This document shows, in pieces, positions 45,086 through 63,113 of a DNA stretch of 64,000 bases. The stretch lies in assembly GCA_036252695.1 (NCBI GenBank), contig GCA_036252695.1_4122.1; one strand, 5' to 3'. Source of the DNA: a phage. How positions within the stretch are numbered: position 1 is the first letter of the stretch; each line of letters starts with the position of its first letter. Made by a program: the position numbers and the translations under genes. The notes beneath the pieces were generated by a model. It saw nothing but the letters and a program-made list of their open reading frames with translations, ran no database searches and was not told the DNA's origin.

Positions 45086-45091
45086 GATTAT

Positions 45092-46662: not shown

Positions 46663-46687
46663 TATTAACTCAATAGGAAAACGATAA

Positions 46688-47979: not shown

Positions 47980-48040
47980 TTTGACAATAGAAATTAAACG
48001 AGTATAATACTTACATCAACCACTGATAAGGAAACATAAA

Positions 48041-48316: not shown

Positions 48317-48319
48317 GTA

Positions 48320-48382
48320 TTGACAAAGTATCTTAGTACTGTATAATAGTTTACATCAAGTGAGGGGAAACGGTTCCCCTCC
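48320..48382 (+). promoter_or_regulatory. class-3 promoter plus leader hairpin
   Basis: TTGACA 48320..48325, TATAAT 48342..48347, hairpin gaggggaaacggttcccctc 48363..48382; near-identical copy ~48593..48650. Confidence 0.6.
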
Positions 48383-48404
48383 TAACAAAGAGAGAGAAAT
48401 AAAA

Positions 48405-48587
48405 ATGGCTAAGTGCACTATCTGCAAGAAAGAAATAGTATTAGTTCCAAGTGCCCGTGAACGTGCCGCTCGGTTTGGTGGCAAAGCGTCAGACTATACA
48501 AAAATGTTTACTGCCCATACAGCTTGCCAGGTAGCAAAACGTTCACAAGAAAGCGTAGAATTAATGCGTAAACTTTCCAAAAAATAA
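48405..48587 (+). CDS. small putative zinc-ribbon protein
   Basis: MAKCTICKKE...HTACQ (CxxC ... HxxC); SD gagaga. Confidence 0.5.
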   Translation: MAKCTICKKEIVLVPSARERAARFGGKASDYTKMFTAHTACQVAKRSQESVELMRKLSKK

Positions 48588-48674
48588 GTATTGACAAAGT
48601 ATCTTAGTACTGTATAATAGTTTACATCAAGTGAGGGGAATGGTTCCCCTCCTAACAAAAAGAGAGAAATTAAA

Positions 48675-48998
48675 ATGACTATGATCCTTACCCAGAAAGT
48701 AGAAATGAAAATTGTAACTTCCTTTGACATTAAAGTTAATCGGTGGACTGATAGCCACGGCAATACTTACCACTCATGCTACGTGTCTGCATTGATTGGT
48801 GACCGCTGGGAAGACCTGGGACATGAAACCTTTACTTACGGTTACGGTACACAAGGCGAATACACGGGCTTGGAGATCATTAAAGAAACCGTTATAGGTT
48901 TCAACCCGAAAGAAAAAGTTATTCACCGCATCGAGGAAGAGATCAACAAAGAAATTACAGTTCGTTACTACGATGTAAAACGTAAGAAAGACATGTAA
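48675..48998 (+). CDS. hypothetical protein (paralog of 41591..41914)
   Basis: Shares RWTDSHGNTYHSCYVS motif. Confidence 0.65.
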   Translation: MTMILTQKVEMKIVTSFDIKVNRWTDSHGNTYHSCYVSALIGDRWEDLGHETFTYGYGTQGEYTGLEIIKETVIGFNPKEKVIHRIEEEINKEITVRYYDVKRKKDM

Positions 48999-49097
48999 TA
49001 GAATCCATTTAAAGTACTATTTGACATTGCCCAGATAGTACTTTATAATAGACTCTAACTTGTAGTACTAATTAACTTAACTAATAGGATGTACACC

Positions 49098-49493
49098 ATG
49101 ATTACTAAATTCTTCGCTACCCGTGAACAAGCTCGCATCGTTGCCCGTGAAGAAGGTGAAACATTTAAAGACATGGGCAAAGATGCACCGAAAGGACAAC
49201 GCTGGGCGGTACAGTTCAAAGAGATCTCTGATATTGTGAATTCACCTGAACCAGTACTTACTGAAGCAGAACTGAAGAAAGCTCAAGAACTGGCTGAAGT
49301 ACTGAACGCTCAAGATGACTTCTTGAAAGGTTCTGATATTCAAGTACAAGTGAATAGTAATGCATGGACTCACGCGGATCACCTGGCAAACCTTAAGCGT
49401 CCAAGTGAACTGATTCGTAACCAGAAAGAGATTCGTCATGACCGTAAAGGAAACCGTGTAACAGTATACAGTAAACGCCGCCAGGTTATCTAA
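49098..49493 (+). CDS. hypothetical protein (paralog of 36056..36322)
   Basis: MITKFFATREQARIVAR..TFKDMG..RKGNRVTVY. Confidence 0.65.
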   Translation: MITKFFATREQARIVAREEGETFKDMGKDAPKGQRWAVQFKEISDIVNSPEPVLTEAELKKAQELAEVLNAQDDFLKGSDIQVQVNSNAWTHADHLANLKRPSELIRNQKEIRHDRKGNRVTVYSKRRQVI

Positions 49494-49555
49494 TAACTTT
49501 GCAGTACTAACAACACGGCGGGAACTATTCCCGCCTTTTTTATAGGATAAACAAA

Positions 49556-49810
49556 ATGATTAAGGTTCAACTATCAAACGATAATGTATTACGGGTACAC
49601 TATAAAGCCCCACAGAGAATCATCACAAAGGCCGTACAGCTTGCTAATGAGTTTATTAATGGTAGTCTATTGCCTAGGAAGTTAAGCAACGGGAAACTAC
49701 GTGTTATCGATGTAGACACTAACAATAGAATAGTGATCGAGAGTACTGGAAAAATTAATCTATATGAACACCAACAATACAATAAAAAAATAAAACTAAT
49801 ATCACGTTGA
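49556..49810 (+). CDS. hypothetical protein
   Basis: 84-aa ORF after hairpin ggcgggaactattcccgcc plus T run. Confidence 0.5.
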   Translation: MIKVQLSNDNVLRVHYKAPQRIITKAVQLANEFINGSLLPRKLSNGKLRVIDVDTNNRIVIESTGKINLYEHQQYNKKIKLISR

Positions 49811-49868
49811 CAGTACTCAAATGTTTTAGTATTATGTATCTATACCAACACAGAGAGAGAGAAACAAA

Positions 49869-50087
49869 ATGAAATTATCTAAAATCGAAAAGAAAACTAT
49901 TGATGAAGCAGTGAAGCACGGTTATACCTTTCGTAATGATTCACACTTCACTAGTTTTCAACAGGGAAACCGTACCATCAAAAAACTCATTGATAAAGGT
50001 TTACTCACTAAGGTTGATAACGGGAACGGTGTAGAATATCAACCGACAGAAGACGCATTATCACTAAAGAAATATTCTATTATCTAA
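49869..50087 (+). CDS. hypothetical protein
   Basis: 72-aa ORF with SD gagaga. Confidence 0.55.
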   Translation: MKLSKIEKKTIDEAVKHGYTFRNDSHFTSFQQGNRTIKKLIDKGLLTKVDNGNGVEYQPTEDALSLKKYSII

Positions 50088-50144
50088 TTGACAGTACTCA
50101 AATGTTTTAGTACTATGTACGCATACCAACACGGGGAAAACAAA

Positions 50145-50387
50145 ATGATTACTTTAGAAAAACGTATCAAAGAGACTACAACGCTGGTGGAACTGTTAAC
50201 CGTTCTTAAATGCCGGGTAACTCCATTCAGTACACCGGACTTTATCAACATGGTGGACGTTAACGGTCGATATCGTATTGCGGTCGAACAAGGTACGGCA
50301 AAAGTATTCAGTACTAAAAATACGCGTGAAGTATTCCACGCAGTTCAAGTAAAAAAAGTAGTTGCCATTGATAGTAAAGTACTGTAA
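50145..50387 (+). CDS. hypothetical protein
   Basis: Start MITLEKR after SD gggga; upstream ~35 nt nearly identical to the region before 49869. Confidence 0.5.
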   Translation: MITLEKRIKETTTLVELLTVLKCRVTPFSTPDFINMVDVNGRYRIAVEQGTAKVFSTKNTREVFHAVQVKKVVAIDSKVL

Positions 50388-50418
50388 TATAGTTTCATTA
50401 ACTCAAGGAGTCAACACA

Positions 50419-51003
50419 ATGCGTAACTATACTAAATTCATCCGTTCACTTCATGCAATGGAAACCAACAAAGAGATCCTTTCAGCTTGTCGGTTAGCTG
50501 GACTGGAGATCGTCGGTGCGGGTTCTTCCCGTATTGTATTCGCTTTAAATGATCGGTTAGTGATTAAGGTCGCGAATTGTGATGCGGGTGTAGAACAAAA
50601 TGAAACTGAATGTAAGGTATGGAATTTTTTAGATTATGACCGTCCGCACCTTAAACAGTACTTTGCTAAAGTGCATATGCATTTATGCGATCCTGATAAT
50701 CTGTTTATTGTTATGGATCGTTTGAGTACTGCAAGCAAAGGCAGTGTAAAGCATGTAAACGCGTGCAATGAGTTAAAGTACAATATTAAACGTAATACGG
50801 TAGAACGCCATCACCATTTCGCTGATGCTCTCAATCACGTTGATGATACATTATCCACACTAACGATAAGAGATATCAGAAAACAGAATATCGGCCAGGA
50901 TCGCAACGGCTTGATTAAAGTACTTGATTACGGTTTAACCCGCAATATCTGGAATCAGTACTATAAAAAACGTGATGTTAACGCGATAACTATAACACGA
51001 TAA
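50419..51003 (+). CDS. protein-kinase-like protein (putative Ser/Thr kinase)
   Basis: Gly-rich loop VGAGSSRIV, VAIK-like VIKVA, catalytic-loop-like IRDIRKQN, DFG-like VLDYG, in the canonical order; strong SD aaggag. Confidence 0.6.
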   Translation: MRNYTKFIRSLHAMETNKEILSACRLAGLEIVGAGSSRIVFALNDRLVIKVANCDAGVEQNETECKVWNFLDYDRPHLKQYFAKVHMHLCDPDNLFIVMDRLSTASKGSVKHVNACNELKYNIKRNTVERHHHFADALNHVDDTLSTLTIRDIRKQNIGQDRNGLIKVLDYGLTRNIWNQYYKKRDVNAITITR

Positions 51004-51227
51004 AAAAGATTAAAAAAGGGATTGACTCCAGTCAGTCCCTTTGCTATTATATATTCATTGAGAGATAACTCACTGACCCATAGGGTGCGGAAGTGTATCT
51101 ATTATATAAGTATTCAGTACTGAAAACTATTTTATAAAAAGTACTTGCAAACTATCTCAATGAGCGTATAATGTTTTATATCGAGAGGGGGAAATGGTTC
51201 TCCCTGGTACTAAAAGGAATCAAGACG

Positions 51228-51449
51228 ATGACTACTATGACATGCGTTCACGCTTCAAATCTTCTGAATGATGCAGCATTTAAAGCAGGTGAAGAATATC
51301 AATGCTATCGGGATGAAAATAAAAAAGTTTTCGTCGTTGATGCTAACGGTTTCCATATTGAATTACAATCCGGCTTCACTGGTGTTGATGGTAAATCAGT
51401 ATGGGGCGTACAGGATGATAACGGTACATATCATTTTAAACGTAATTAA
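51228..51449 (+). CDS. hypothetical early protein
   Basis: Promoter, hairpin gagggggaaatggttctccct, SD aagga. Confidence 0.55.
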   Translation: MTTMTCVHASNLLNDAAFKAGEEYQCYRDENKKVFVVDANGFHIELQSGFTGVDGKSVWGVQDDNGTYHFKRN

Positions 51450-51533
51450 GTATTGACAAAGTATATCAGTACTGTATAATAGTTTACATCAAGGGGAGAA
51501 TAGCTCTCCCCACCAATAAAAGGAAACAAAATT

Positions 51534-51806
51534 ATGTCCAGCTACTCCGCTACTATGATTATTAAAGATATGAACGGTAATCCTACTTCTGCTGGTGGAT
51601 CATTTGGTAACATTAATTTAGATGGGCGGTTATCAATTGAATCAGCCATCAATGCAGCGAAAGAAGTTTTTAAGAATGAATGTACTGTAAGCAAACTGGA
51701 TTATATGGGCTTCGCTATCGAGAAAACTAATCGTTTTGTGGACTACAAAAAACCACTGATGATTGATACTAACCTGAAAGCAAACGAAGTGGAATACTTA
51801 TTATGA
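51534..51806 (+). CDS. hypothetical early protein
   Basis: Class-3 promoter, hairpin ggggagaatagctctcccc, SD aagga. Confidence 0.6.
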   Translation: MSSYSATMIIKDMNGNPTSAGGSFGNINLDGRLSIESAINAAKEVFKNECTVSKLDYMGFAIEKTNRFVDYKKPLMIDTNLKANEVEYLL

Positions 51807-51994
51807 CAGTAGAAGAAGTTAAAAAAGTACTGGCAGTACTACGCTATCATAATCATTGTAAGGTGAAGAATGATCCTGATTATCTTGATTCATCGCTGGA
51901 AGAGGATACACTACAAGCAATAAGCCATATGCAAAAAATGCTTAAGCGTATGACCGAAAAGAACAGGCCGGACTATATCGGAAATAAAATTTAA
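51803..51994 (+). CDS. hypothetical protein
   Basis: ATGA-coupled 63-aa ORF. Confidence 0.5.
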   Translation: MTVEEVKKVLAVLRYHNHCKVKNDPDYLDSSLEEDTLQAISHMQKMLKRMTEKNRPDYIGNKI

Positions 51995-52077
51995 AAAGTA
52001 CTTGCATTGTAAGTAAAACAAAGTATAATGTTTTACATAGGGGGAGATATCCTCCCCCACTAATAAGGAGTACTAAA

Positions 52078-52302
52078 ATGGCTAACTTTGATGAACTGAT
52101 GCGGGAAGTAGCTACCCTGGCAGAAGAGAAGAAATCATTTGATTCTATCTATAACACCGCTTACAGTGATTCAGTACTGGCATGTACTCAGGATCAAAAA
52201 GATGAACTGATCGCCACCTATCATGAAGCATGGAAGTATTACCGCCAATGGGAGAAAGAAGAAAGCGAGTCTACCATCAACGGCATCAATAATCTAATCT
52301 AA
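52078..52302 (+). CDS. hypothetical early protein
   Basis: Promoter, hairpin gggggagatatcctccccc, SD aaggag. Confidence 0.6.
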   Translation: MANFDELMREVATLAEEKKSFDSIYNTAYSDSVLACTQDQKDELIATYHEAWKYYRQWEKEESESTINGINNLI

Positions 52303-52377
52303 AGTTTTATTTCAGTACTATTGACAATGCGTGATAGTACTGATGTAATAACTTTACTAACTACAAGGGGAAACATA

Positions 52378-52635
52378 ATGGAACAGTTCACACAATATCG
52401 GGTAAATCCTCAAGCTATGGCCTACGTAGAAGACCATAAAACATTACCAGTACAGACACCAATCAAAGGCCGTATCTATCGTGCTATGCAGTGGAATAAC
52501 GCCTATAATGGCTATAAAGCGGTAGCGGCTGCAATGTACTTAGGGGATGGCGAATGGTTTGATCCAAATAATCCTGGTGCACTAGATAGTACTGAACAAA
52601 TGACATGGGCCGACTATATCGAAGATATTTCATAA
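52378..52635 (+). CDS. hypothetical protein
   Basis: Start MEQFTQYR after class-2 promoter and SD ggggaaa. Confidence 0.55.
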   Translation: MEQFTQYRVNPQAMAYVEDHKTLPVQTPIKGRIYRAMQWNNAYNGYKAVAAAMYLGDGEWFDPNNPGALDSTEQMTWADYIEDIS

Positions 52636-52723
52636 AAACTATTTGACAGTACTACAAGATAATGTATAATGTTTTACATAGAGCGGGGGAATAGTTCTCC
52701 CGCACCTTTAGGAGTAAAACATT

Positions 52724-52924
52724 ATGTCAATCGCTAACGAATTGGTTGCAGTACTGAATGAAGCAAAAGCCAACTGCATCGATGTACAGATCAAAGAGCT
52801 TGGCAATGGCTTGATCGGCTGTACTTGTACAGTGCAAACGGCTACCGATTATCGGGAAGTGGAATCACTCGAATCACTGGTACGGTATATTAAAATCCTG
52901 GTAGAAGATTGGAGAATCATCTAA
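52724..52924 (+). CDS. hypothetical early protein
   Basis: Promoter, hairpin gcgggggaatagttctcccgc, SD aggag. Confidence 0.55.
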   Translation: MSIANELVAVLNEAKANCIDVQIKELGNGLIGCTCTVQTATDYREVESLESLVRYIKILVEDWRII

Positions 52925-53182
52925 CAAAAAAGAATAAAAAAAAGGGATTGACTCCGGTCAGTCCCTTTGCTATTATATACGCATAGACAAAAACTAGCCC
53001 ACAGGGTGCAGAGAAGTATCTATAAGATAGTTAATAACGGTGAGTAACTATCTGCTGGTGGATGTAATGCCAGTACTCAAAACTATTTCAAAAAAAGTAT
53101 TGACAAAGTATATCAGTACTGAGATAATGTATCTCGTAGGGCGGCAATAGTGCAGCCCACCTCCAAAAGAGCGAGATATAAA

Positions 53183-53398
53183 ATGGCGTTAACCAAACAA
53201 GAAATTATCGACCGTATCAAAGAGTCAACTGGCTGGTATGTTGGGGACCGTTTAATTGTTAAAGTTCTCGATTATTCAAATAATCCTCTTGCACCGGAAC
53301 CAGTGGCATACAAATTATCCTGGATATCTGCGTTTAGCGGTAAGCGTGAAAGATGTGTGTACTATCCGAACACAGTCGGGCTACAGTTCTGTAAATAA
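53183..53398 (+). CDS. hypothetical protein
   Basis: Start MALTKQE after class-3 promoter and hairpin gggcggcaatagtgcagccc. Confidence 0.5.
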   Translation: MALTKQEIIDRIKESTGWYVGDRLIVKVLDYSNNPLAPEPVAYKLSWISAFSGKRERCVYYPNTVGLQFCK

Positions 53399-53498
53399 AT
53401 TTTAATAGAAAAAGTATTGACAAAGTATATCAGTACTGCAATAATGTATCTCGTAGGGCGGCAATGGTGCGACGGCCCACAAAGTTAGGAGATTCACC

Positions 53499-53825
53499 AT
53501 GAGTACTTCAATCGCTATCGTTAAAGCTTTCATCCGTACCAATTTCGACCGCATTACTGTTGATGGTAATGATCGGGAAGTAGAATACTCTTTCATTGTT
53601 GCACAAACCGCAAACGGTGCACGCTATATCTTAAACGATAGTGAAGCTAACCACTACTTCTATAATAAAGGATTACACTACATCCCTAGCGAAGTAGTCT
53701 ACAGTAAGATGAATAAGCTGGTAGACAAGATTAACGCTAAAGGTACTATCGATTTACAGTACTGGACCGAAACCGATCCAGAATACGGATCACATCGTTA
53801 CCTGAATCCAGGAATTAAAATGTAA
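53499..53825 (+). CDS. hypothetical protein
   Basis: 108-aa ORF, SD aggaga, class-3 promoter upstream. Confidence 0.6.
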   Translation: MSTSIAIVKAFIRTNFDRITVDGNDREVEYSFIVAQTANGARYILNDSEANHYFYNKGLHYIPSEVVYSKMNKLVDKINAKGTIDLQYWTETDPEYGSHRYLNPGIKM

Positions 53826-53914
53826 AAAGTACTTGCATTGTACTTAGAATCAAGTATAATGTTTTACATAGAGAGGGGGAAATGGTTCTCCCTCCTAAAT
53901 TAAGGAGTTTTATC

Positions 53915-54316
53915 ATGACCTTCTCAATCACTTCCTTCGCTGACGTTTTAGTACTGGCTCGGACTTTTGGTAAAGATGCACTGGAGTACGCTGTAAGTAA
54001 TGGCACTCTCCAACCGGAACAATGCCGCATCATTGGAAACTGCAAACGTTGGGCGGTATCCAATACTATTGCACTAGAAAACTTCAACGATGGTAACAAT
54101 GAGTATTCAGTTGATGCAGTATTCGAAGCCGTTGATCTTGGCGGTATCTATAACACTAACCTAAATGATGTGCGTATCGTTCGCACGGGGTTCGGTGCTT
54201 ATGATGTATCTATCCGTGAAGCTATGAACACCGGATACATTAGTAAGGACTTACTTGCTCACATCATGCAGCTATGGACGGAACGTAACGAAGCACGCAC
54301 TATCTTAGGGCTGTAA
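53915..54316 (+). CDS. hypothetical protein (133 aa)
   Basis: Promoter, hairpin gagagggggaaatggttctccctc, SD aaggag. Confidence 0.65.
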   Translation: MTFSITSFADVLVLARTFGKDALEYAVSNGTLQPEQCRIIGNCKRWAVSNTIALENFNDGNNEYSVDAVFEAVDLGGIYNTNLNDVRIVRTGFGAYDVSIREAMNTGYISKDLLAHIMQLWTERNEARTILGL

Positions 54317-54384
54317 GCATTACACATCACCAAACATCATAGGCCGCTCTCTAGCGGCCTTAACTATATCAGGAGGGCATACAT

Positions 54385-54594
54385 ATGTTCTATACAGTAT
54401 ACAGCGTTCTAGGTACTATTGCTGGCGTACATGATAACGTCAGTGATGCTATGCGTACAGTACTGCAACAGGTTCCACTAAAGCCTAAGACTGTTAAGCA
54501 GATGACAGCACGACTAACCAGGGCGACGGATGGCGTGGAAGTATGGCAGGACTACGGGGATACACAGATAATCGTTAGCGTAACGAAGGATTAA
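54385..54594 (+). CDS. hypothetical protein
   Basis: 69-aa ORF with SD aggagg; preceded by hairpin ggccgctctctagcggcc. Confidence 0.55.
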   Translation: MFYTVYSVLGTIAGVHDNVSDAMRTVLQQVPLKPKTVKQMTARLTRATDGVEVWQDYGDTQIIVSVTKD

Positions 54595-54785
54595 TGCGTA
54601 AAGGGATCTAGTACTGATTCAGAAAAAAGTCAAGGCGTTTTTAAAATAATGCGTTAAAAAAATGCATAGGTAATCCCTTGACTTTTTTAAAATAAAAGGG
54701 ATTGGACTATGGCAAAATGCGTAGGGGGCTAAAGGGCGGGTAACCTTAGCGACTTCGATAAAGGGGTATTACGAATAAAATGTTA

Positions 54786-54813
54786 TTGACTTTTTATACA
54801 ATTCATATATTAT
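54786..54813 (+). promoter_or_regulatory. promoter of the Fam-L array
   Basis: TTGACT 54786..54791, ~16-nt spacer, TATTAT; follows intergenic repeats aaagggat / atcccttgac. Confidence 0.5.
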
Positions 54814-54843
54814 ATGATTGATATTATTTTCAAGGGAGTCCCT

Positions 54844-55041
54844 ATGCGTATTTTAACTCAAGCAGAACACCACGAAAGACTTATCAATAACATGGCTATG
54901 ATAATGTATAAGTCACATGACCGTGGTATTGCCTATAAGCGTGAATTAATTATGGCACTATTCATTGGGACTAACTATCAGGAAAGGTATGTCAAGGATT
55001 GGATTTGGTATTTAATTGAAGATGTAACGAGTAAACTATGA
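54844..55041 (+). CDS. Fam-L (LGTNYQ) small protein
   Basis: Start at Met after SD aggga; FIGTNYQERYV motif. Confidence 0.6.
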   Translation: MRILTQAEHHERLINNMAMIMYKSHDRGIAYKRELIMALFIGTNYQERYVKDWIWYLIEDVTSKL

Positions 55042-55238
55042 AAATGCGTAAATTAACCGAAAAAGAATATCAAGCACTGTTACGTAAAAACTTCACAAAG
55101 ATTTATAATACAGACTCACACGTAGAACGAATGGAGTTATACCTTTTGATTACATTGGGAACTAACTATCAGGATGCATGGGTAACGAAATATGTGGATA
55201 CATTGAAAAATGAAATTTTGTCCACGAGGAAACAATGA
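55038..55238 (+). CDS. Fam-L small protein
   Basis: ATGA-coupled; LGTNYQDAWV. Confidence 0.65.
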   Translation: MKMRKLTEKEYQALLRKNFTKIYNTDSHVERMELYLLITLGTNYQDAWVTKYVDTLKNEILSTRKQ

Positions 55239-55444
55239 AAACTATAACACGAACCCAATCATACGGTCTTATCTTGAAATACATGGACTTAATGGTGGAT
55301 ATCAGCAAAGACCTTCCTAAAACTGAAATTGAAGTTGCAAGAGCAGAGATCCGTATGTTGGCTGTACTGAACACAAACCATCAGGAAGAGTATGTTCAAG
55401 ATTGGATTCGATTTTTAATAGAAGATATTAAGAGTAAACTATGA
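55235..55444 (+). CDS. Fam-L small protein
   Basis: coupled; LNTNHQEEYV. Confidence 0.65.
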   Translation: MKTITRTQSYGLILKYMDLMVDISKDLPKTEIEVARAEIRMLAVLNTNHQEEYVQDWIRFLIEDIKSKL

Positions 55445-55653
55445 TTATATTAACACCTGAAGAATATAAGAAACGTTTTAAATCTGTCCAGGCTGAAATA
55501 TTACTTATATACCTTTCAAATGCAGATCTTAACTTATCAAGGGTAATGGAGAAGGATTTACTTATGGGTGCATTTTTGGATACAGACTTTCAGGAGTATT
55601 ATGTAGGAGAATACTTTATTGCACTTCAGAACCACATTAAGAGTAAACTATGA
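55441..55653 (+). CDS. Fam-L small protein
   Basis: coupled; FLDTDFQEYYV. Confidence 0.65.
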   Translation: MIILTPEEYKKRFKSVQAEILLIYLSNADLNLSRVMEKDLLMGAFLDTDFQEYYVGEYFIALQNHIKSKL

Positions 55654-55865
55654 TTATTCTAGAAAAATCATATCAATATACTGAACGCATCGCTGCCAGA
55701 CAACTTGAAATCCTCATAATATACGAAGAGACTTCTGATTTAAACTTAGCCGAGGTATTGGAAAATGAAATACTTTTGGGTGCATTCTTGGGAACAGACT
55801 ATCAGGAGTATTATGAGGAAAAGTATTTGTCATCTCTTGAGAAATACGTCAGGAGCAAACTATGA
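55650..55865 (+). CDS. Fam-L small protein
   Basis: coupled; FLGTDYQEYY. Confidence 0.65.
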   Translation: MIILEKSYQYTERIAARQLEILIIYEETSDLNLAEVLENEILLGAFLGTDYQEYYEEKYLSSLEKYVRSKL

Positions 55866-56089
55866 AACATTTAAGTAATATAGAGAAGAATAAAATTATC
55901 ATTGCTGTAATAAACAAATATTTTACACTTCCACAAAAAGAATGTTTATCTATAAGGGAACACAGGATAAACACCACCGAGATTCGCATGTTGGCTGTAC
56001 TGGGGACTAACTTCCAAGAAGGCTATGTTCATGAGCACATCGTTGCACTCACTAATTACATAATGGACAAATGTAATGAACATCATTAA
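55862..56089 (+). CDS. Fam-L small protein
   Basis: coupled; LGTNFQEGYV. Confidence 0.65.
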   Translation: MKHLSNIEKNKIIIAVINKYFTLPQKECLSIREHRINTTEIRMLAVLGTNFQEGYVHEHIVALTNYIMDKCNEHH

Positions 56090-56300
56090 TAACTTTGAAT
56101 ACGAGGCCCGTGCTAAGAGTGCCAGAAAAAAAGAGAACACCATTTACTTCACTATGATGTACTTACAATGGACTGAAATTGAAGAAAAGGTTGCTGAAGT
56201 ATGGATGTTGGAATTCATGGGGACGCAGTATCAGAATAGGTTTGCGGGTGAGTATATCAATGTTCTTATGAAACAAATAGAAAGAAAGGAAAAGAACTAA
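56076..56300 (+). CDS. Fam-L small protein
   Basis: overlapping start; MGTQYQNRF. Confidence 0.6.
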   Translation: MNIINNFEYEARAKSARKKENTIYFTMMYLQWTEIEEKVAEVWMLEFMGTQYQNRFAGEYINVLMKQIERKEKN

Positions 56301-56458
56301 TGGTTTTCATTAACATATCTGACCAACTCGATACTAAACTAAAAGTCGAGCAGAGTGAGGGATGGATGCTGTACTTTCTTGGAACTTCTCATCAGAATTT
56401 TTATGTCCATGAACACATAGTTGCACTCACAAATCTAATAAGGGATAAATGTAAATGA
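56300..56458 (+). CDS. Fam-L small protein (52 aa, below cutoff)
   Basis: Hand-translated MVFINISDQ..FLGTSHQNFYV; TAATG-coupled. Confidence 0.5.
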   Translation: MVFINISDQLDTKLKVEQSEGWMLYFLGTSHQNFYVHEHIVALTNLIRDKCK

Positions 56459-56712
56459 AACACTTGACGAACGATGAATATTCACTTAGAATTCGAAAGC
56501 TCACCCCAGAAGCAAGACTAATCTACGATGACGGTGAACTTTCATGGAACGAGATGAAAGTTAAAGTTCATGAGCTATGGTTGCTGTACTTTGTGGGAAC
56601 CCAATATCAAGAGAAATATTGTACCGATTATCTTGAACAACTAATGGATCTTATACAGATAAAACTAAATGAACGAATTGTGGAAAAATATGAAGACTTT
56701 ATCAAGCACTGA
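56455..56712 (+). CDS. Fam-L small protein
   Basis: coupled; VGTQYQEKY. Confidence 0.65.
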   Translation: MKHLTNDEYSLRIRKLTPEARLIYDDGELSWNEMKVKVHELWLLYFVGTQYQEKYCTDYLEQLMDLIQIKLNERIVEKYEDFIKH

Positions 56713-56941
56713 GTATCAGACTGCCCTCTTCTCTCTTCTTAACACCCTTAGAAAAAACTATGCATTACATGGTGCACCTGAATTGGATGTTATCAACGGT
56801 GATGTTTATCTTATGAAATTCATTGGAACAAACTATCAAGAACTGTTCACTCAACGATATATCTCTGCACTGAGAAACGAAATATCAGATAAAACCCGCC
56901 AAGCCCAAAGAGAATGGAAGAGACAATGCAACAAAGACTAA
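56690..56941 (+). CDS. Fam-L small protein
   Basis: Start at family-like MKTLSSTEYQ (alternative 56669); IGTNYQELF. Confidence 0.55.
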   Translation: MKTLSSTEYQTALFSLLNTLRKNYALHGAPELDVINGDVYLMKFIGTNYQELFTQRYISALRNEISDKTRQAQREWKRQCNKD

Positions 56942-57177
56942 ATCACAAAATGTATTTTAAACTATTACAGAATCTAGGACAAAAACACTATGATACAGTA
57001 TCTGAAATATTACCCTATGATATCATGCGTTTAATTCATAGTGAGGCAGAGATGCTTGTACTGATGACAGGCACTGATAAAACAGCAATTACCAAATCTA
57101 TAGATATGTTCATCGATGCACACTGCCAACACATTAGAACCGAGATATGGAGACGTGAGAATGAAAATCCTGACTGA
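56926..57177 (+). CDS. Fam-L-like small protein (divergent, MTGTDKT)
   Basis: Start uncertain (56914, 56926 or 56950). Confidence 0.5.
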   Translation: MQQRLNHKMYFKLLQNLGQKHYDTVSEILPYDIMRLIHSEAEMLVLMTGTDKTAITKSIDMFIDAHCQHIRTEIWRRENENPD

Positions 57178-57376
57178 GCATGAGTATTACAATAGGTTAA
57201 GAACTATACAAGGAAAAGTCTCGTGGACTTTTTTAGATAATTCTATTGCAGAAGCGGACCGATGTGTTATAATAGCTGAAATGAAGCTATTACTCTTCAT
57301 TGGGACAAACTATCAAAGTATCTACATAGACGCATGGTTAAGCAGCTTACGTCTGAAGTCGGTGAGTTTAAAATGA
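57161..57376 (+). CDS. Fam-L small protein
   Basis: Start at MKILTEHEYYNRL with SD ggaga; IGTNYQSIY. Confidence 0.6.
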   Translation: MKILTEHEYYNRLRTIQGKVSWTFLDNSIAEADRCVIIAEMKLLLFIGTNYQSIYIDAWLSSLRLKSVSLK

Positions 57377-57591
57377 GAAAATTAATAGGTTTCGAATATG
57401 TTAAGCTTCTACAAACCTGTGGAATCAGAAGGAGAATGATTCAAAAGGATAAAAGAATTGCCGAAGAACGAAAGTATATAATGATAACTGAACTTTATGT
57501 CTTAACACTCTTAGGCACAAACTATCAACACACTTATGTAGACCTATGGATCGATGCACTACAGAAAGAGGTTAAAAGTAAATGCAAATGA
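57373..57591 (+). CDS. Fam-L small protein
   Basis: ATGA-coupled; LGTNYQHTYV. Confidence 0.65.
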   Translation: MRKLIGFEYVKLLQTCGIRRRMIQKDKRIAEERKYIMITELYVLTLLGTNYQHTYVDLWIDALQKEVKSKCK

Positions 57592-57800
57592 TTAATTTAA
57601 GTAAAGACGAATTTTATGTTATACTGGCGAAAACTTATCCAGCACGTAAGGCCGTTTATGATAGTCACATTATTGAACCCTCAAAGAAGTTGATTTTAGT
57701 AAATGAGATAAAGATGCTTTCAGTCTTAGGAACAAACTATCAAGAGAATGCTGTACTGTTGTTAATTGATGCCCTCAAGAGAGAGATACAAAGTAAATGA
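57582..57800 (+). CDS. Fam-L small protein
   Basis: MQMINLSKDEF; LGTNYQENAV. Confidence 0.65.
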   Translation: MQMINLSKDEFYVILAKTYPARKAVYDSHIIEPSKKLILVNEIKMLSVLGTNYQENAVLLLIDALKREIQSK

Positions 57801-58021
57801 TTAATTTAACTTACCATGAATATCAAAAACGTTTAAATGCATCCAGAGATATAAGGATTCAAATATTCAATAACAAAAGATTGAAGCCTGATATCAGGAA
57901 AATCAAAATCATAGAAGCAGAGTTGTGCAACTTTCTAGGGACGAACTATCAGGCAGGTAAGGTAAAAAACTATCTTAAAGAACTCATGAATAGTATTGAA
58001 AATAAATGTAAGGGTAATTAA
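57797..58021 (+). CDS. Fam-L small protein
   Basis: coupled; LGTNYQAGKV. Confidence 0.65.
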   Translation: MINLTYHEYQKRLNASRDIRIQIFNNKRLKPDIRKIKIIEAELCNFLGTNYQAGKVKNYLKELMNSIENKCKGN

Positions 58022-58022
58022 C

Positions 58023-58289
58023 ATGAAAATGATCAATTTAAGTAAAGATGAATATAACGAGCGACGTGCAAAAATCTCAACTAAACGCACCGAAATCTAT
58101 TACAGCGAAGAAATCAAACACGACAAGAAGATGATTATGATACGTGAGTTGATAATGGGTGCTATGCTAGGAACTAACTATCAAGAACAAGAGGTACAAC
58201 TCGTATTAAATGAATTACTAATGGAAATCAGAGGTAAGCTGTACTTTCATCAAATGACCCGCCCACTAAGGTGTACTAGGAATGATTAA
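58023..58289 (+). CDS. Fam-L small protein
   Basis: Start at MKMINLSKDEY just after previous stop; LGTNYQEQEV. Confidence 0.6.
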   Translation: MKMINLSKDEYNERRAKISTKRTEIYYSEEIKHDKKMIMIRELIMGAMLGTNYQEQEVQLVLNELLMEIRGKLYFHQMTRPLRCTRND

Positions 58290-58497
58290 CATCACATTAC
58301 AAGAAAGGTTCATACGCATCAACTATGCAATTTCCAAATTAGATGCTACAATAGGATTTCAAAGTCTACCATACAAAACCAGATTGTTATTAGAGTGTGA
58401 AGCTAAGTTGGGTGTACTGTTAGGGACGCAACACCAACAACGATATGTGGAAATCTGGATTGACCTTTTAACCCAAAATATATATGAGAGAATGTAA
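58282..58497 (+). CDS. Fam-L small protein
   Basis: LGTQHQQRYV. Confidence 0.65.
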   Translation: MINITLQERFIRINYAISKLDATIGFQSLPYKTRLLLECEAKLGVLLGTQHQQRYVEIWIDLLTQNIYERM

Positions 58498-58728
58498 ATG
58501 CAAAATGAAATGATATACATAACGAATGAAGAATTTCAAGAGAAGATGTTAAAAACAAAAAACATTAATCTTAAGTTCGTTCCAAATCAATCAATATATG
58601 AAGTATCTGCAAATGTATTGTTTCAGAAGTTACCATACGTTCTTGGAACTGATAAACAAGAATTTATGGTTCAAAATATGATTGAACATCTTATGATGAG
58701 TATTAAGGAAAAAGTAAATGCAAAATGA
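58498..58728 (+). CDS. Fam-L small protein
   Basis: MQNEMIYITNEEF; LGTDKQEFMV. Confidence 0.65.
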   Translation: MQNEMIYITNEEFQEKMLKTKNINLKFVPNQSIYEVSANVLFQKLPYVLGTDKQEFMVQNMIEHLMMSIKEKVNAK

Positions 58729-58963
58729 AATGATATACTTAACATATAATGAATACGTCGAGAGATTAGTTAGTGCCAAGAGATATACAAATCAACTTCC
58801 TCACAACCCAAACCAAACCCCAGAGGAAAAGAATGCGGAAGCTCTATTCCAAGCACTACCATACCTTCTTGGAACTGATAGGCAGGAGTATCACGTTGAA
58901 CGTATAATTAAATCTCTTAAAATCACTATTAAGGAAAAGATACATGAAACACTTGACAGATGA
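58718..58963 (+). CDS. Fam-L small protein
   Basis: MQNEMIYLTYNEY (start identical to previous paralog); LGTDRQEYHV. Confidence 0.65.
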   Translation: MQNEMIYLTYNEYVERLVSAKRYTNQLPHNPNQTPEEKNAEALFQALPYLLGTDRQEYHVERIIKSLKITIKEKIHETLDR

Positions 58964-59174
58964 TGAACATGGGCTTATAGTAATGGATGTAATCAACATC
59001 GAATACAAAAAGTTGATACGCTATCGTTGTTATGAAGATAAGCAACTAGTTCTAGCAGAACAGAAGTTGTTTCGACTCTTAAACACAAACTACCAAGCAC
59101 AATACGAAGAATCGTATATGTACCTTTTGGCGAGGAAAGCAAAAAGAGATTATGAAAATTTTAAGCAAAGGTGA
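58944..59174 (+). CDS. Fam-L small protein
   Basis: LNTNYQAQY. Confidence 0.6.
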   Translation: MKHLTDDEHGLIVMDVINIEYKKLIRYRCYEDKQLVLAEQKLFRLLNTNYQAQYEESYMYLLARKAKRDYENFKQR

Positions 59175-59373
59175 TTCAGTAATATTACTTATAGAGAGTT
59201 CAAGTAAATTCTTAAACATAACACTGTCTGATATAGATGAAGATGATAAAGAAGTACTGAGAGCAGATTTAAGAGTACTGTTACATCTCGGAACAAACCT
59301 ACAAGAAGAATATGTAGAGTACTACATTGATGAACTTAAAGAATCAGTACTGAGAAGATGCAAATGCGAATGA
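59152..59373 (+). CDS. Fam-L small protein
   Basis: LGTNLQEEYV. Confidence 0.6.
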   Translation: MKILSKGDSVILLIESSSKFLNITLSDIDEDDKEVLRADLRVLLHLGTNLQEEYVEYYIDELKESVLRRCKCE

Positions 59374-59585
59374 TTACCGACGAAGAATACCTAACAATTA
59401 TAAATGGATTGTTTTTGAAGTTGTTTGTTATTAACACATCAGATATACCAGATATGGATAAAATTATTAAGAGAAATGAAATCTATGTTCAAGCTACACT
59501 AGGGACTAACTATCAAGAATGCAATATTAATGATTATATTAATACACTTAAACGAGCGATTGAACTAAAATGCCAAAACCACTAG
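59358..59585 (+). CDS. Fam-L small protein
   Basis: LGTNYQECNI. Confidence 0.65.
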   Translation: MQMRMITDEEYLTIINGLFLKLFVINTSDIPDMDKIIKRNEIYVQATLGTNYQECNINDYINTLKRAIELKCQNH

Positions 59586-59785
59586 GAACAGCAGAATACA
59601 TTGAACTCATGGGATTACACTTCTCATCCTTTCAGAAACTTATGCGAGAATCAAAGAATGATTTAGAATATACCATCAGAGGTTCAGAATTAAGAATGCT
59701 TCTCACCCTAGACACAGATTCCCAAGAGAGATTTGTCAATGAGCATATTAGAGCACTTTTAATGGAAATTCAAAGTAAACTATGA
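59570..59785 (+). CDS. Fam-L small protein
   Basis: LDTDSQERFV. Confidence 0.6.
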   Translation: MPKPLGTAEYIELMGLHFSSFQKLMRESKNDLEYTIRGSELRMLLTLDTDSQERFVNEHIRALLMEIQSKL

Positions 59786-59997
59786 AGATAATATCAAATC
59801 AAGAGTACTTGGCACTATTCAGGAAGAATAATCACAAATATATGGCACTTGATTCAAGAACTGATATAAGTGAACTTGAAAAAAATCTTTTGCGTTCAGA
59901 GATGATAGTACTGACACTCTTAGGAACACAGCATCAAGAAAGAACTGTTAATTCACACATAGAAATACTTAAGAAGCTTATACAGGAAAAGTTATGA
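59782..59997 (+). CDS. Fam-L small protein
   Basis: LGTQHQERTV. Confidence 0.65.
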   Translation: MKIISNQEYLALFRKNNHKYMALDSRTDISELEKNLLRSEMIVLTLLGTQHQERTVNSHIEILKKLIQEKL

Positions 59998-60215
59998 GAA
60001 TCATAACACAACAAGATATGTTTAAGTTCACAAGGGATTATGCATCTGAATTTGATGCTATATTATCAAAAAGTTACAACAACCCTTATACAGAAGATGT
60101 ACACTACAATGAATTATGGGTGTATATACTTTTAGGTACAGATCATCAAGAGCAAGCCGTACAGAGGTATTTGAGTGCTTTAAGTACTGCTACTGCTAAT
60201 GGAGTATGTGTTTAA
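59994..60215 (+). CDS. Fam-L small protein
   Basis: LGTDHQEQAV. Confidence 0.65.
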   Translation: MRIITQQDMFKFTRDYASEFDAILSKSYNNPYTEDVHYNELWVYILLGTDHQEQAVQRYLSALSTATANGVCV

Positions 60216-60216
60216 T

Positions 60217-60459
60217 ATGAAAGTACTGACAGAATTAGAAATGTATCATAGATTTAATAAGTACTATCATTTACTTAAACCTATACAGAGGATTAAGTGT
60301 CCCTTTGTAGTGAAACAGGTATTAATTTATGAGCATAAGTTATTTGTATCATTAGGTACGAATGAACAAGATTATTATTTGAAGTTGTACTTAATTACTT
60401 TAATTGAATTGATTAATTCCAAAACTCAGAAAGCGAAGAAATATAAAAATGAAAACTAA
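60217..60459 (+). CDS. Fam-L small protein
   Basis: Start at MKVLTELEMY after previous stop; LGTNEQDYYL. Confidence 0.6.
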   Translation: MKVLTELEMYHRFNKYYHLLKPIQRIKCPFVVKQVLIYEHKLFVSLGTNEQDYYLKLYLITLIELINSKTQKAKKYKNEN

Positions 60460-60790
60460 AATTCAACTCAGGGTATACATATCGTATGAAAATATATACG
60501 TTAAAAGTAGTCTATGTAAAGATGTAATGGACTACAAAGGTAAACCATTCACAGTTACTTACAGTTTAACAGGAGGTTTATATATCTCTTTTGCTAATTA
60601 CGAAAATAATATGTACGAACACATTGACATTGAAGATTTAAGTACTTTATCACCAGAGGAATACTTCCAGGAATCATTAGTATGGGATTTAGAGTTCCCT
60701 ATGCCATTAGTACATAAGATGATAGTACTAATGAAAGAATCTAAACAGGAGCCTAATGGTGATTATGAAGAACACATTATTGAGTATTAA
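60449..60790 (+). CDS. Fam-F hypothetical protein (PEEYFQESLVWD motif)
   Basis: 113-aa ORF overlapping previous gene end. Confidence 0.55.
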   Translation: MKTKIQLRVYISYENIYVKSSLCKDVMDYKGKPFTVTYSLTGGLYISFANYENNMYEHIDIEDLSTLSPEEYFQESLVWDLEFPMPLVHKMIVLMKESKQEPNGDYEEHIIEY

Positions 60791-60880
60791 GAGTTCTGAT
60801 AGTACTGAGAGTACAAATGTTCTTGACAGTACTTTTCATTACTGATATAGTGCACCAACGTTAATCATAGGGTACAGATT

Positions 60881-61126
60881 ATGTTGAATTTTTTAAATTT
60901 CCTTATCGTCTTGTGTATTGTTCTTGGGATTGCACCATTTGTATTGTATTTCATGGATTCAGATGAAATGCAGAAGATGAATTGCACAAGGACAGGACAG
61001 AGTAGAGTAGAGACGATTCTTATGCCTGTTACGGTTATTGTTAACAACATGCCAATTACGAACATGGTCCCTACCCTAACGACAACGTACCAGTACTCTT
61101 GTACAGACGGAGTGAGGTGGAGATAA
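60881..61126 (+). CDS. hypothetical protein with N-terminal TM segment
   Basis: TTGACA..TATAGT promoter-like upstream; weak SD. Confidence 0.4.
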   Translation: MLNFLNFLIVLCIVLGIAPFVLYFMDSDEMQKMNCTRTGQSRVETILMPVTVIVNNMPITNMVPTLTTTYQYSCTDGVRWR

Positions 61127-61449
61127 TGCGTAAATTCAATTGTATTGTACGTAAGAATTCATGTTACATTGTAGTAGCTGATTTTAATACGGGTTCTGGG
61201 TTGAAGATATTTGAGTACAGAAAATGTAATAATTCTTTTCATTGGAAATTAGGTGCAAGAAAAACAAATACAATTTCAGTACCGAATTTATGTTCTATCT
61301 CTGAAGAAGAAGAGTTTCAGTACATGTTAGTACACGATGATTCTTTAGGTTTTACATTAGAAGATATGAAGAAAGTGCAACAGCAGATGATTGCACATTG
61401 TCATCTTCCAAAGAATTTTGTTCAACACGTATGTGAATTCCACATATAA
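61126..61449 (+). CDS. Fam-F hypothetical protein (EEEFQYMLVHDD motif)
   Basis: Start at MRKFNCIV (TAATG-coupled); track ORF 61099 is an extension. Confidence 0.55.
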   Translation: MRKFNCIVRKNSCYIVVADFNTGSGLKIFEYRKCNNSFHWKLGARKTNTISVPNLCSISEEEEFQYMLVHDDSLGFTLEDMKKVQQQMIAHCHLPKNFVQHVCEFHI

Positions 61450-61557
61450 GAGAAGAATATGAAATTTAATATTCACAGAATGAAGATCAATGTTGACACT
61501 CCATTTGAATAGTGTTAACATGTTTACCTATTCAATTTTAAGATAAGGTACAATGAT

Positions 61558-62367
61558 ATGAAATTTTTAACAGAATCTGAAGCAACCAATTTGATTATGA
61601 AAAAATTTAGTTCTGGTGATTTAAAGAAATCAGCATCTTACAAAGGTTCAGTTGCCTTGAGTTTATATCTTGGTACAAATTATCAGGAAGCAGCACAAGA
61701 GCAATATATTAATGCATTAAAGGAAGAGATTCGAGAAAAAATTAAAATTAATAAAGATTGCAGTACTGATTTTTCAATTGAAAAGTTATTGAATATGTTT
61801 GTCAATACAACAGAGACACCAAGAAAAGAAGATGTTGGTTTAGGTCATGTAAGTGATTTTATGTACGCAGCATATGAATCTTTAGTACAGACTGGGATTG
61901 CTAAATCTGTAATTGAAGTGCATCGTAAATTTGAAGAAGGTGATGAAATTAGACAATTAGTTAAAGATAAAGAAAATAAGATTGGTCGTTTATTTGTTAT
62001 TAAGGACAATGATAGTTCTTCATATATTTTGATTAATACAGATAAGACATTCAATTATTACAAGGATTTACATTATTATATGATTACCAATTACGGAATA
62101 TCCTATTTAAGAAGTAATTGGGAAGTTGAATATGTATTTTATTTTAACAAACATTCGCATGGTTCAACAAGAACAAAAGATTTATATGAGCAAGCATTAA
62201 TGATTGCTACGCCTAATGAAAATGGCATTTTCAGTAAAGATTACGATAAGGTATTGGAACGTTTAAAACACAGAGCTTCGTGCGGGACAATGCCGTGTGA
62301 TTATAGTATTACACAATACAATAAAAATTATCATTGTGGTGTTTTTAAGGAACAATATAAATCATGA
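61558..62367 (+). CDS. Fam-L domain fused to ~200-aa C-terminal extension
   Basis: N-terminal 70 aa carry LGTNYQEAAQEQYINALKEEI; long unique C-terminal part. Confidence 0.7.
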   Translation: MKFLTESEATNLIMKKFSSGDLKKSASYKGSVALSLYLGTNYQEAAQEQYINALKEEIREKIKINKDCSTDFSIEKLLNMFVNTTETPRKEDVGLGHVSDFMYAAYESLVQTGIAKSVIEVHRKFEEGDEIRQLVKDKENKIGRLFVIKDNDSSSYILINTDKTFNYYKDLHYYMITNYGISYLRSNWEVEYVFYFNKHSHGSTRTKDLYEQALMIATPNENGIFSKDYDKVLERLKHRASCGTMPCDYSITQYNKNYHCGVFKEQYKS

Positions 62368-62684
62368 AATTTAATATAGCAAAAACATCTAATGTATGTA
62401 TATTTGGTTATGCTGATGAGTTAGGTGATCTTGACATTCTATTGTACAAAAAGGATGGTGTTATGCATTTCAAGTACCAGGATGAAGAGGCAGACAATTA
62501 TCCTTTACCTAATTTAGTACAAATGCAGGAAGATGAATTATTCCAGTACAGCTTAGTATATGACATTGATATTTGCACGATGCCAGTACTAATTAATATT
62601 CAAAAAGTGATGCTCGATGTGTTTGATAGGCTAATACAAGGCACACAAGGAAGAACCATATATGTCAATGTACAAGACAATTAA
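62364..62684 (+). CDS. Fam-F hypothetical protein (EDELFQYSLVYD motif)
   Basis: ATGA-coupled 106-aa ORF. Confidence 0.6.
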   Translation: MKFNIAKTSNVCIFGYADELGDLDILLYKKDGVMHFKYQDEEADNYPLPNLVQMQEDELFQYSLVYDIDICTMPVLINIQKVMLDVFDRLIQGTQGRTIYVNVQDN

Positions 62685-62877
62685 TCAAGAATGGAAGACC
62701 CAAAAGTACAGGGAATTCAGTACTAGTTTAACAAAAGATGCATTGAATTTAAAAAGAACAGAGTTTGATATGTTTATTTTTCTTGGAACACGTTCACAGG
62801 AACAATACATTCATTATTATATAAGTTCATTGCGAACGGAGATCGTATGCAAAACACAGGGTATTATAAAAAAGTAA
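62662..62877 (+). CDS. Fam-L-like small protein (LGTRSQEQYI)
   Basis: Divergent family member; start may be 62668. Confidence 0.5.
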   Translation: MSMYKTINQEWKTQKYREFSTSLTKDALNLKRTEFDMFIFLGTRSQEQYIHYYISSLRTEIVCKTQGIIKK

Positions 62878-63113
62878 ACCAATATTTGTACGCTACAAAG
62901 TACAGGGATTTTTGTTTAAAGGGTGGTGATGAAGATTTTTCTTTGCGATTATCAGAATTTAATCTGTTATTTTATCTTGGTACATCGGAACAAGAAGAAA
63001 TGGCACAGAAATTTATCAAGCACCTTGAACAAAAAATTCATATGCAAATTTTGATGCTTAAGGTACATAATGAGATAAACAAATATGAACCCAACAATAG
63101 TACAGGATCTTAA
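62847..63113 (+). CDS. Fam-L-like small protein (LGTSEQEEMA)
   Basis: Divergent family member; start uncertain. Confidence 0.5.
   Translation: MQNTGYYKKVNQYLYATKYRDFCLKGGDEDFSLRLSEFNLLFYLGTSEQEEMAQKFIKHLEQKIHMQILMLKVHNEINKYEPNNSTGS

Follow-up and report, generated by a model that had tools for sequence, protein, structure and literature searches.

What does a bacteriophage gain from carrying about thirty diverged copies of one small gene in a row? The question is raised by an array at 54844..63113 of a 64,000-nucleotide stretch of phage DNA (GenBank assembly GCA_036252695.1, contig GCA_036252695.1_4122.1; hereafter the window, meaning the whole stretch analysed). The window derives from a jumbo myovirus of the genus Asteriusvirus, the group of Escherichia phages 121Q, PBECO4, G17 and Sharanji. 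The genes of the array form a family, here called Fam-L, with 29 members in the window, and this one orphan domain takes about 8 kb of a 350-kb coliphage genome and roughly 5% of its genes. We propose, with a probability of roughly 45%, that Fam-L is a lineage-specific birth-and-death family of small (~70 amino acids, aa), soluble, non-virion early proteins that probably act as host-directed binders, for takeover or anti-defence.

A tandem family beside the terminal repeat

A profile hidden Markov model (HMM) built from the copies was run against the 411 open reading frames (ORFs) of at least 35 aa in the window. It matched 29 of them, all on the + strand within 54814..63113, and the next best ORF gave E = 0.12. 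Because such a search is circular, confirmation by an independent model matters. The phrog_4148 profile matched 28 of the 29 copies (best E = 5.6e-24) and phrog_28039 matched 14. The members comprise 26 contiguous genes, two further genes downstream and the N-terminal domain of a 269-aa protein. The initial annotation had reported about 30 tandem ~70-aa paralogs with an LGTNYQ signature, and both models bear this out.

The consensus of the paralog alignment reads M..LT..EY, followed by ~30 variable residues and E......LGTNxQE..V...I..L...I..K, which agrees with the M..L(T/S)..EY..LGT(N/D)YQ architecture described at the outset. The T is invariant, and the Q and one L are conserved in at least 90% of the copies. 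Owing to the choice of start codon, this alignment lacks a short N-terminal stretch of members 10 and 16; the HMM analyses used the full ORFs. Paralogs share a median identity of 31% (maximum 59%). The longest exact word common to two units has a median length of 9 nt and Tandem Repeats Finder detected no ~210-bp period in the array, so that the repeat exists at the protein level only. The G+C content of the array is ~33% in an AT-rich genome, and neither Rfam families nor tRNAs nor structured RNA were found in the window. Grand average of hydropathicity is negative in nearly all copies, as for soluble proteins. Isoelectric points range from 4.4 to 9.8 and net charge from -7 to +8, and no copy has a metal-binding Cys pattern.

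Member 15 (57797..58021) was modelled with AlphaFold2 from an alignment of the 29 paralogs only, with a mean predicted local distance difference test score of 97.0 and a predicted template modelling score of 0.81. In the model, helices at residues 6-15, 17-24, 31-44 and 52-71 form a compact four-helix domain, and a beta-bridge joins residue 2 to the invariant T at residue 49. The model thereby clasps the conserved N-terminus to the LGTNYQ turn, and the V/I/L/I positions of the last helix appear to follow a heptad, as would be expected of a buried face. Against the 74-position phrog_4148 profile the same protein gave E = 1.8e-23 over residues 1-72. Scans of all 29 copies with Pfam, NCBIfam and PADLOC returned scattered single-member noise only, no family of PADLOC-DB, which covers defence and anti-defence systems, was matched by two Fam-L copies, and a sequence-profile search of the PDB gave zero matches at E <=10. 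With these searches blank and no specific fold match, the initial description holds: a small domain of unknown function has undergone a large tandem expansion.

The position of the array could be fixed precisely. It follows a direct terminal repeat (DTR) of 21,171 bp at 33576..54746, a region of dense, small, separately promoted + strand genes that lies outside the family. The left edge of the repeat was set at 33576, where 25 nt agree exactly with the beginning of the G17 DTR. For the right edge, three related genomes were compared. The 370.8-kb record of G17 contains both repeat copies, and the sequence at its position 1 aligns at 100% over 1500 bp beside the array. This alignment stops at ...GGGCGGGTAACCT|, where the annotated DTR of phage vB_Ec-M-J also ends; in that phage the repeat reaches record position 21,525 and the Fam-L array follows directly. 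The G17 junction implies a DTR of 20,668 bp, equal to the published value for Sharanji (PMC11895373). In fEgEco12 a DTR of 20,993 bp has been confirmed by PhageTerm and restriction digests (PMC13070987), and its end, carried over by the alignment offset, also maps onto window position 54746. Since the junctions of G17, vB_Ec-M-J and fEgEco12 agree, we place the right edge of the DTR at 54746; the first Fam-L gene starts 98 nt beyond it.

A predicted sigma70-type promoter at 54786..54813 on the + strand (TTGACT, 16 nt, TATTAT; 10 of 12 positions match the consensus) begins 40 nt inside the unique DNA and may serve the array. Its -35 element is conserved in G17 and vB_Ec-M-J, and both hexamers are the same as those of hairpin promoters in the DTR at 47733, 51022 and 52948. 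The DTR itself holds 17 strong sigma70-like promoters on the + strand, compared with 0.5 expected from shuffled sequences, typically one per small gene, and the 8.4-kb array contains only two strong sites, the one at its head and an internal match at 56464. Further sigma70-like sites precede the gene at 60881 (60823..60851) and the fusion gene at 61558 (61493..61521). From this distribution, the block of 26 Fam-L genes together with the gene at 60449..60790 has the appearance of a single operon, to which the 3' part of the locus seems to have been added later as cassettes. The 26 junctions between 54844 and 60790 (5.9 kb) are correspondingly tight: successive ORFs overlap at 21 of them, as first noted from the sequence, ten as ATGA (-4) overlaps, and the largest gap is 16 nt. 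A Shine-Dalgarno sequence is recognisable in few copies.

Most DTR genes of PA5oct, a related phage that relies on host RNA polymerase, are highly transcribed early in infection (PMC7318152). From the position of the array and the class of its promoter we infer early timing for Fam-L as well; the promoter is probably in use, and translation of the overlapping genes is probably coupled.

Several features of the flanking repeat were noted alongside. A repeated 28-nt hairpin, AAAGGGATTGACTCCGGTCAATCCCTTT, occurs on the + strand at 47726..47761, 51015..51050 and 52941..52976; it holds the -35 hexamer TTGACT and is followed by the -10 element TATTAT. Situated between DTR genes, it may unite terminator and promoter in one cassette, and it recalls the promoter-stem-loop cassettes known from T4-type phages. 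At ~54600..54710, just ahead of the DTR end, there is a related AAAGGGAT...ATCCCTT element. At the other end of the repeat, ~2 kb without convincing ORFs (33233..35214) span the physical left end of the genome at the DTR start (33576), and the first 1.7 kb of the vB_Ec-M-J DTR are likewise free of genes.

Distribution and selection

Nucleotide matches to the array region (84-95% identity, 42-85% coverage) occur in 36 phage records, all of them from phages of Escherichia or Salmonella. The region upstream of the array matches the same phages, and none of the complete E. coli genomes contains the array region. An HMM search of 1.84 billion representative proteins yielded only 91 matching clusters, nearly all of 52-122 aa, and every named source checked was either Asteriusvirus or Klebsiella Alcyoneusvirus (RaK2, K64-1, KP13-7, RCIP0023, phiKp_21). 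In Klebsiella phage RaK2 only 2-4 copies are detectable, at the corresponding point where spaced genes give way to packed ones, and as in the window a phrog_13866-like gene comes after the main copy, RaK2_00362.

Eight Asteriusvirus genomes carry 23-31 Fam-L copies each (25 in 121Q by our count), which fall into 38 strictly colinear orthogroups at a threshold of at least 60% identity; whole units are present or absent. In a comparison of seven genomes, 14 of 37 orthogroups occurred in every genome. Member 15 has orthologs of 80-98% identity in 33 phage records. The layout recurs, with 16 Fam-L copies, in an uncultivated relative (ENA ERZ14189038 NODE_1), whose DTR-type flank has 67-84% nucleotide identity to the window up to position 54752. 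The copies of this relative are 25-50% identical to any member from a cultured genome, and no clear orthologs could be assigned. For 7 of these 16 copies and for 26 of the 29 in the window the closest relative is a paralog from the same genome, which points to mainly lineage-specific birth and death.

Are the proteins part of the particle? In phAPEC6 the array corresponds to gp462c-gp489c, and none of these proteins appears in the published list of 62 virion proteins. The mass spectrometry list jumps from gp347 to gp549, indicating that Fam-L proteins are not virion components.

Pooled ortholog comparisons by the Nei-Gojobori method gave ratios of nonsynonymous to synonymous divergence (dN/dS) of 0.32-0.38 in all ten genome pairs, and the frames are open across eight genomes. 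Hence the Fam-L frames are selected coding genes rather than filler, and the loss of frames in related genomes, which would have spoken against the family from the start, did not occur. Between the window and vB_Ec-M-J, dS was 0.40, dN 0.149 and dN/dS 0.37 in the array; the corresponding values for 37 adjacent DTR genes, a control set biased towards conserved, ungapped pairs, were 0.14, 0.022 and 0.15. Divergence steps sharply at the DTR junction (54746|54747), which could result from homogenisation of the repeat or from recombination or replacement in the array. Per-position omega, pooled over 29 orthogroups, was below 0.2 at L5, E9, E40, T49, Q52, L63 and K70 and 0.5-0.8 at surface positions, with a maximum of 0.81. 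Positions that vary between paralogs are conserved within orthogroups.

With paralogs at ~31% identity and orthologs 80-98% identical and colinear, the expansion is, judged by these sequence comparisons, old and not recent. A genomic accordion of recent, near-identical copies was rejected on the same paralog identities (median 31%, maximum 59%) and on the lack of any DNA-level repeat.

Gene layout and neighbouring genes

All genes of the locus are on the + strand, and E-values of individual members refer to the Fam-L HMM. Member 1 (54844..55041; E = 9.4e-21) belongs to orthogroup 1, found in all eight genomes; its start at 54844 is preceded by a GGAG Shine-Dalgarno sequence, and the ORF may extend back to 54814. 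It is followed by member 2 (55038..55238; 3.5e-20), by member 3 with the variant motif LNTNHQ (55235..55444; 5.9e-24) and by member 4 with LDTDFQ (55441..55653; 3.7e-23), the last two joined to their predecessors by ATGA overlaps. Member 5 (55650..55865; 2.8e-19) is 48% identical to member 4 and precedes members 6 (55862..56089; 8.9e-26) and 7 (56076..56300; 2.4e-22). Member 8 (56300..56458; 1.4e-18) is truncated to 52 aa, without the N-terminal helices; the 59% identity of its C-terminal half to member 6 points to a partial duplication.

Downstream of member 9 (56455..56712; 1e-26) several ORFs are open upstream of the assigned start. These are member 10 (56690..56941, open from 56669; 1e-21), member 11 (56926..57177, open from 56914; 5.2e-18), member 12 (57161..57376, open from 57116; 2.2e-22), member 13 (57373..57591, open from 57334; 2.2e-24), member 14 (57588..57800, open from 57582; 4.2e-23) and, beyond the modelled member 15 (8.3e-25), member 16 (58023..58289, open from 57996; 1.6e-23). 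Member 11 is the most divergent copy, with MTGTDKT and a 6-residue insertion. The run continues with members 17 (58282..58497; 1.6e-21) and 18 (58498..58728; 9.8e-22), member 19, which is 47% identical to member 18 (58718..58963; 4e-22), and members 20 (58944..59174; 7.6e-18), 21 (59152..59373; 3.5e-23), 22 (59358..59585; 7.2e-25), 23 (59570..59785; 9.8e-22), 24 (59782..59997; 1.8e-23) and 25 (59994..60215; 1.8e-22), and it ends with member 26 (60199..60459; 1.4e-21).

The picture of an uninterrupted series holds for these 26 genes; the 3' part of the locus is broken by three phrog_13866-like genes (starting at 60449, 61126 and 62364) and one 81-aa gene. The first phrog_13866-like gene (60449..60790; E = 2.5e-07 to that profile) has an EE.FQ..LV.D motif and overlaps member 26 by 11 nt, and it therefore belongs to the same coupled unit. 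The 81-aa gene (60881..61126) matches phrog_8826, a family of unknown function, and has a hydrophobic N-terminus. After the second phrog_13866-like gene (61126..61449; E = 1.4e-05) comes the fusion gene, member 27 (61558..62367; 1.3e-15), which overlaps the third phrog_13866-like gene (62364..62684) by ATGA. Member 28 (62662..62877; 1.3e-19) and member 29 (62847..63113; 5.1e-17), whose orthogroup occurs in 7 of 8 genomes, are the last in the window.

In the 269-aa fusion protein the Fam-L domain occupies residues 1-63, and its recognition by phrog_4148 (E = 1.2e-10) confirms the N-terminal module reported initially. The remaining 200 aa form an orphan C-terminal domain. The same fusion was found otherwise only in phages EC.P1 and UB, and the C-terminal domain occurs as a stand-alone protein (~40% identity) in RaK2, K64-1 and RCIP0023. 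It has no Pfam, PHROG or PDB match, and its homologs, confined to this phage clade, carry no annotation.

Isolated family members occur outside the main array. In vB_Ec-M-J, EcMJ_118 (40574..40765 of that record) lies ~14 kb downstream, and in K64-1 the members gp484 and gp525 are 41 genes apart; the window stops at 64000, and any such outliers further downstream in the source phage lie beyond it. Phage A4 carries a 272-aa Cys-rich ORF, A4_316 (record 25480..26298), between the DTR junction and its first Fam-L gene. The ORF is missing from the other genomes compared and may be an insertion of the mobile-element or homing-endonuclease type. In ERZ14189038 NODE_1, one gene (5375..5626 of that record) in the spaced, early-type set ahead of the Fam-L array matches the ParE_like toxin family (PF24732).

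A second tandem array is present at 28241..33232 on the + strand and consists of 22 small genes of 59-75 aa with the motif (H)KEYYI..L ... C.. ...Y..L.LI... A relationship to Fam-L was rejected (hhalign probability 0.6%). This array ends 343 nt before the DTR start at 33576, so that on the circular map a paralog array stands on each side of the repeat, and G17 has the same second array at the same junction. Next to it, on the - strand, 25781..26935 and 26990..28156 encode two paralogous ~385-aa proteins with the common N-terminus MNKGGNMLPFVRM and Gly/Asn-rich repeats. By size and position they are probably the 41-kDa virion 'DNA condensation proteins' gp549 and gp551 of phAPEC6.

Possible roles of Fam-L

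How could such an array work? Under the interpretation favoured here, the Fam-L genes would be the first transcription unit of the unique DNA after the left DTR, and host RNA polymerase would make one long polycistronic mRNA early in infection from the sigma70-type promoter at 54786. Overlapping stop and start codons would couple the translation of neighbouring genes, so that the whole panel would be made together. Every copy would adopt the same compact four-helix domain, its N-terminal M-x-L-T strand clasped to the LGTNYQ turn and its core packed by the hydrophobic heptad of the last helix. The remaining positions, presumably mostly on the surface, would differ between paralogs, with charges from -7 to +8, and be kept within each orthogroup. 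One scaffold with diversified surfaces makes a repertoire of single-domain binders the most likely role. Each copy would then be aimed at a different host or competitor protein, either in takeover or to neutralise defence or toxin proteins, and gain, loss and divergence of whole units would remodel the repertoire between phage lineages.

A more far-reaching version, which we regard as unlikely, would make Fam-L a modular binder scaffold. The conserved polar clasp would dock all copies on one host hub or effector and the variable helical faces would pick the targets. Together with the unrelated 22-gene array this would amount to an evolvable evasion repertoire, a phage counterpart of the terminal families of African swine fever virus (ASFV) and poxviruses, setting host range across E. 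coli and Salmonella strains that differ in their defences.

Several observations weigh against host-directed binders. Some of the most conserved positions are polar (T49, Q52, N/D50, E9, Y10, E40, K70), and this could equally reflect a single partner or ligand common to all copies. A multi-subunit assembly would likewise be compatible with near-equimolar co-expression. The fold searches yielded neither a binder or inhibitor family nor a specific fold match, and the array promoter is a prediction that matches the consensus at only 10 of 12 positions. In addition, no position had omega significantly above 1, in a comparison of limited power that used eight genomes and pairwise counts and in which the intervals barely reach 1. 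Given this result and the good conservation of orthologs, a classical arms race is not demonstrated. The arms-race character proposed in the initial annotation is matched by the early-type setting, the non-virion nature of the proteins, presence and absence of units, fast evolution and turnover; it found no counterpart in diversifying selection or in a recent expansion.

The same observations bring forward a role in the phage's own processes, which we consider unlikely. The paralogs would be subunits of an oligomeric assembly, or regulators or adaptors with one docking site, and coupling would match their amounts. Co-expression is favoured by the tight coupling and by the lack of internal promoters, the residues conserved most strongly are polar and sit in the clasp between N-terminus and LGTNYQ turn, as for a shared functional site, and the universal presence of 14 of 37 orthogroups in seven genomes, with no site at omega >1, is in line with such a role. 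However, an obligate stoichiometric complex is hard to reconcile with copy numbers that vary from 23 to 31, with content that is replaced in a relative and with the 2-4 copies of RaK2. The proteins were not found in virions, and charges from -7 to +8 argue against uniform nucleic-acid binding.

Host-directed binding has a special case, suggested by analogy with orphan immunity genes arranged in tandem, in which the array would be a poly-immunity or antitoxin-like locus and each copy would neutralise a different toxin, be it from host toxin-antitoxin systems, abortive-infection systems or competing phages. Small tandem single-domain proteins with diversified surfaces on one scaffold and strain-wise presence or absence would suit this, as would the ParE-like gene in the equivalent early region of the uncultivated relative. 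We nevertheless consider it quite improbable, since Fam-L has no similarity to immunity or antitoxin families in Pfam, PADLOC, NCBIfam or the PDB and cognate toxin genes are not evident in the locus.

Could the copies simply be near-neutral tandem duplicates with little or no function that enlarge the genome, as in the ratchet idea of Hua et al. (2017)? An array in 121Q and phAPEC6 has been read in this way (Hua et al., 2017, PMC5646251; Wagemans et al., 2020, PMC7247149), constraint is weaker than in the neighbouring genes (dN/dS 0.37 vs 0.15) and whole units are dispensable in some genomes. Yet every orthogroup is open-framed across eight genomes at dS up to 0.5 with dN/dS ~0.35, core positions have omega <0.2 and paralogs at ~31% identity retain the fold signature. 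Moreover, the terminal repeats have a fixed length of 21 kb (PMC13070987, PMC11895373), so filler DNA is not needed for packaging. This explanation is accordingly given little credence.

That Fam-L proteins are Hha/Cnu/YmoA-like modulators which bind host H-NS and relieve silencing of AT-rich phage DNA is scarcely credible: a length of ~70 aa, the four-helix composition, the AT-rich genome and the N-terminal motif LT..EY...LR, similar to LTKTDYLMRLR of Hha (a sequence verified against the PDB), speak for it, but homology to Hha, Cnu and YmoA (PDB 1JW2, 2JQT, 2K5S) was rejected with an hhalign probability of 3.6% over 17 columns and no Pfam HHA match at E <1.

The family is not new as a set of proteins, and the expectation of novelty stands only in part. 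The same proteins make up phrog_4148 and phrog_28039, which carry no function, structure or genomic context; neither is a characterised family. A tandem array in 121Q and phAPEC6 received a single sentence each from Hua et al. (2017; PMC5646251) and Wagemans et al. (2020; PMC7247149), and the remark was repeated in a 2026 review. Both called the genes 'very similar' and argued for genome growth by duplication. These remarks very probably refer to the Fam-L array and/or the array at 28.2-33.2 kb, and the latter may be all or part of the 'more than 30' genes of Hua et al. They give no coordinates, family definition, structure, position or evolutionary analysis, and Fam-L paralogs, at ~31% identity, are not 'very similar'. 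The new elements here are the tandem organisation, the position at the DTR, the fold model and the evolutionary dynamics, of which the position is the main contextual result.

Among other phages, the terminal-redundancy module of SPO1 comprises ~24 small early genes, and T5 has its pre-early genes in a long terminal repeat. These modules resemble the setting of Fam-L, a probably early array, in being clusters of small non-structural early genes at or beside a long terminal repeat with strong host-type promoters. Their genes are unrelated to one another and usually have a promoter each, like the DTR part of the window, whereas the Fam-L operon, a single coupled unit just beyond the repeat, contains one domain some 30 times over. 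Bacillus phage G has a lineage-specific expansion of ~35 zinc-ribbon genes (Iyer et al., 2021; PMC7824862). It is likewise a large small-domain expansion in one jumbo-phage lineage whose function is conjectured; there, however, the zinc ribbon is recognisable and the conjecture is nucleic-acid binding, whereas Fam-L has no metal-ligand pattern or known fold relative.

A parallel in kind is offered by large eukaryotic DNA viruses. The MGF110, MGF360 and MGF505 families of ASFV and the ankyrin and Bcl-2-like families of poxviruses are, like Fam-L, non-structural tandem paralogs by terminal repeats with variable copy number and content. A role in host range and immune evasion is the accepted paradigm for them; they belong to a different realm, infect different hosts and have unrelated folds. 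The poxvirus 'genomic accordions' (Elde et al., 2012), as cited in PMC13359090, are recent near-identical amplifications and differ from the ancient, diverged Fam-L copies. With 29 tandem paralogs that adjoin the DTR and vary in number and content, Fam-L is a viral multigene family built on an orphan fold.

Because these phages grow on E. coli K-12, Fam-L is unusually tractable. The rate step at the DTR junction is relevant to the growth of jumbo-phage genomes, as are the paralog arrays that flank the repeat, and if the copies proved dispensable, the duplication-ratchet view of genome gigantism would be supported. If they are anti-host binders, some 90 natural variants of one scaffold would offer a route to new mechanisms of host takeover or anti-defence, and Fam-L would be a bacterial-virus example of the terminal multigene-family strategy of large eukaryotic viruses.

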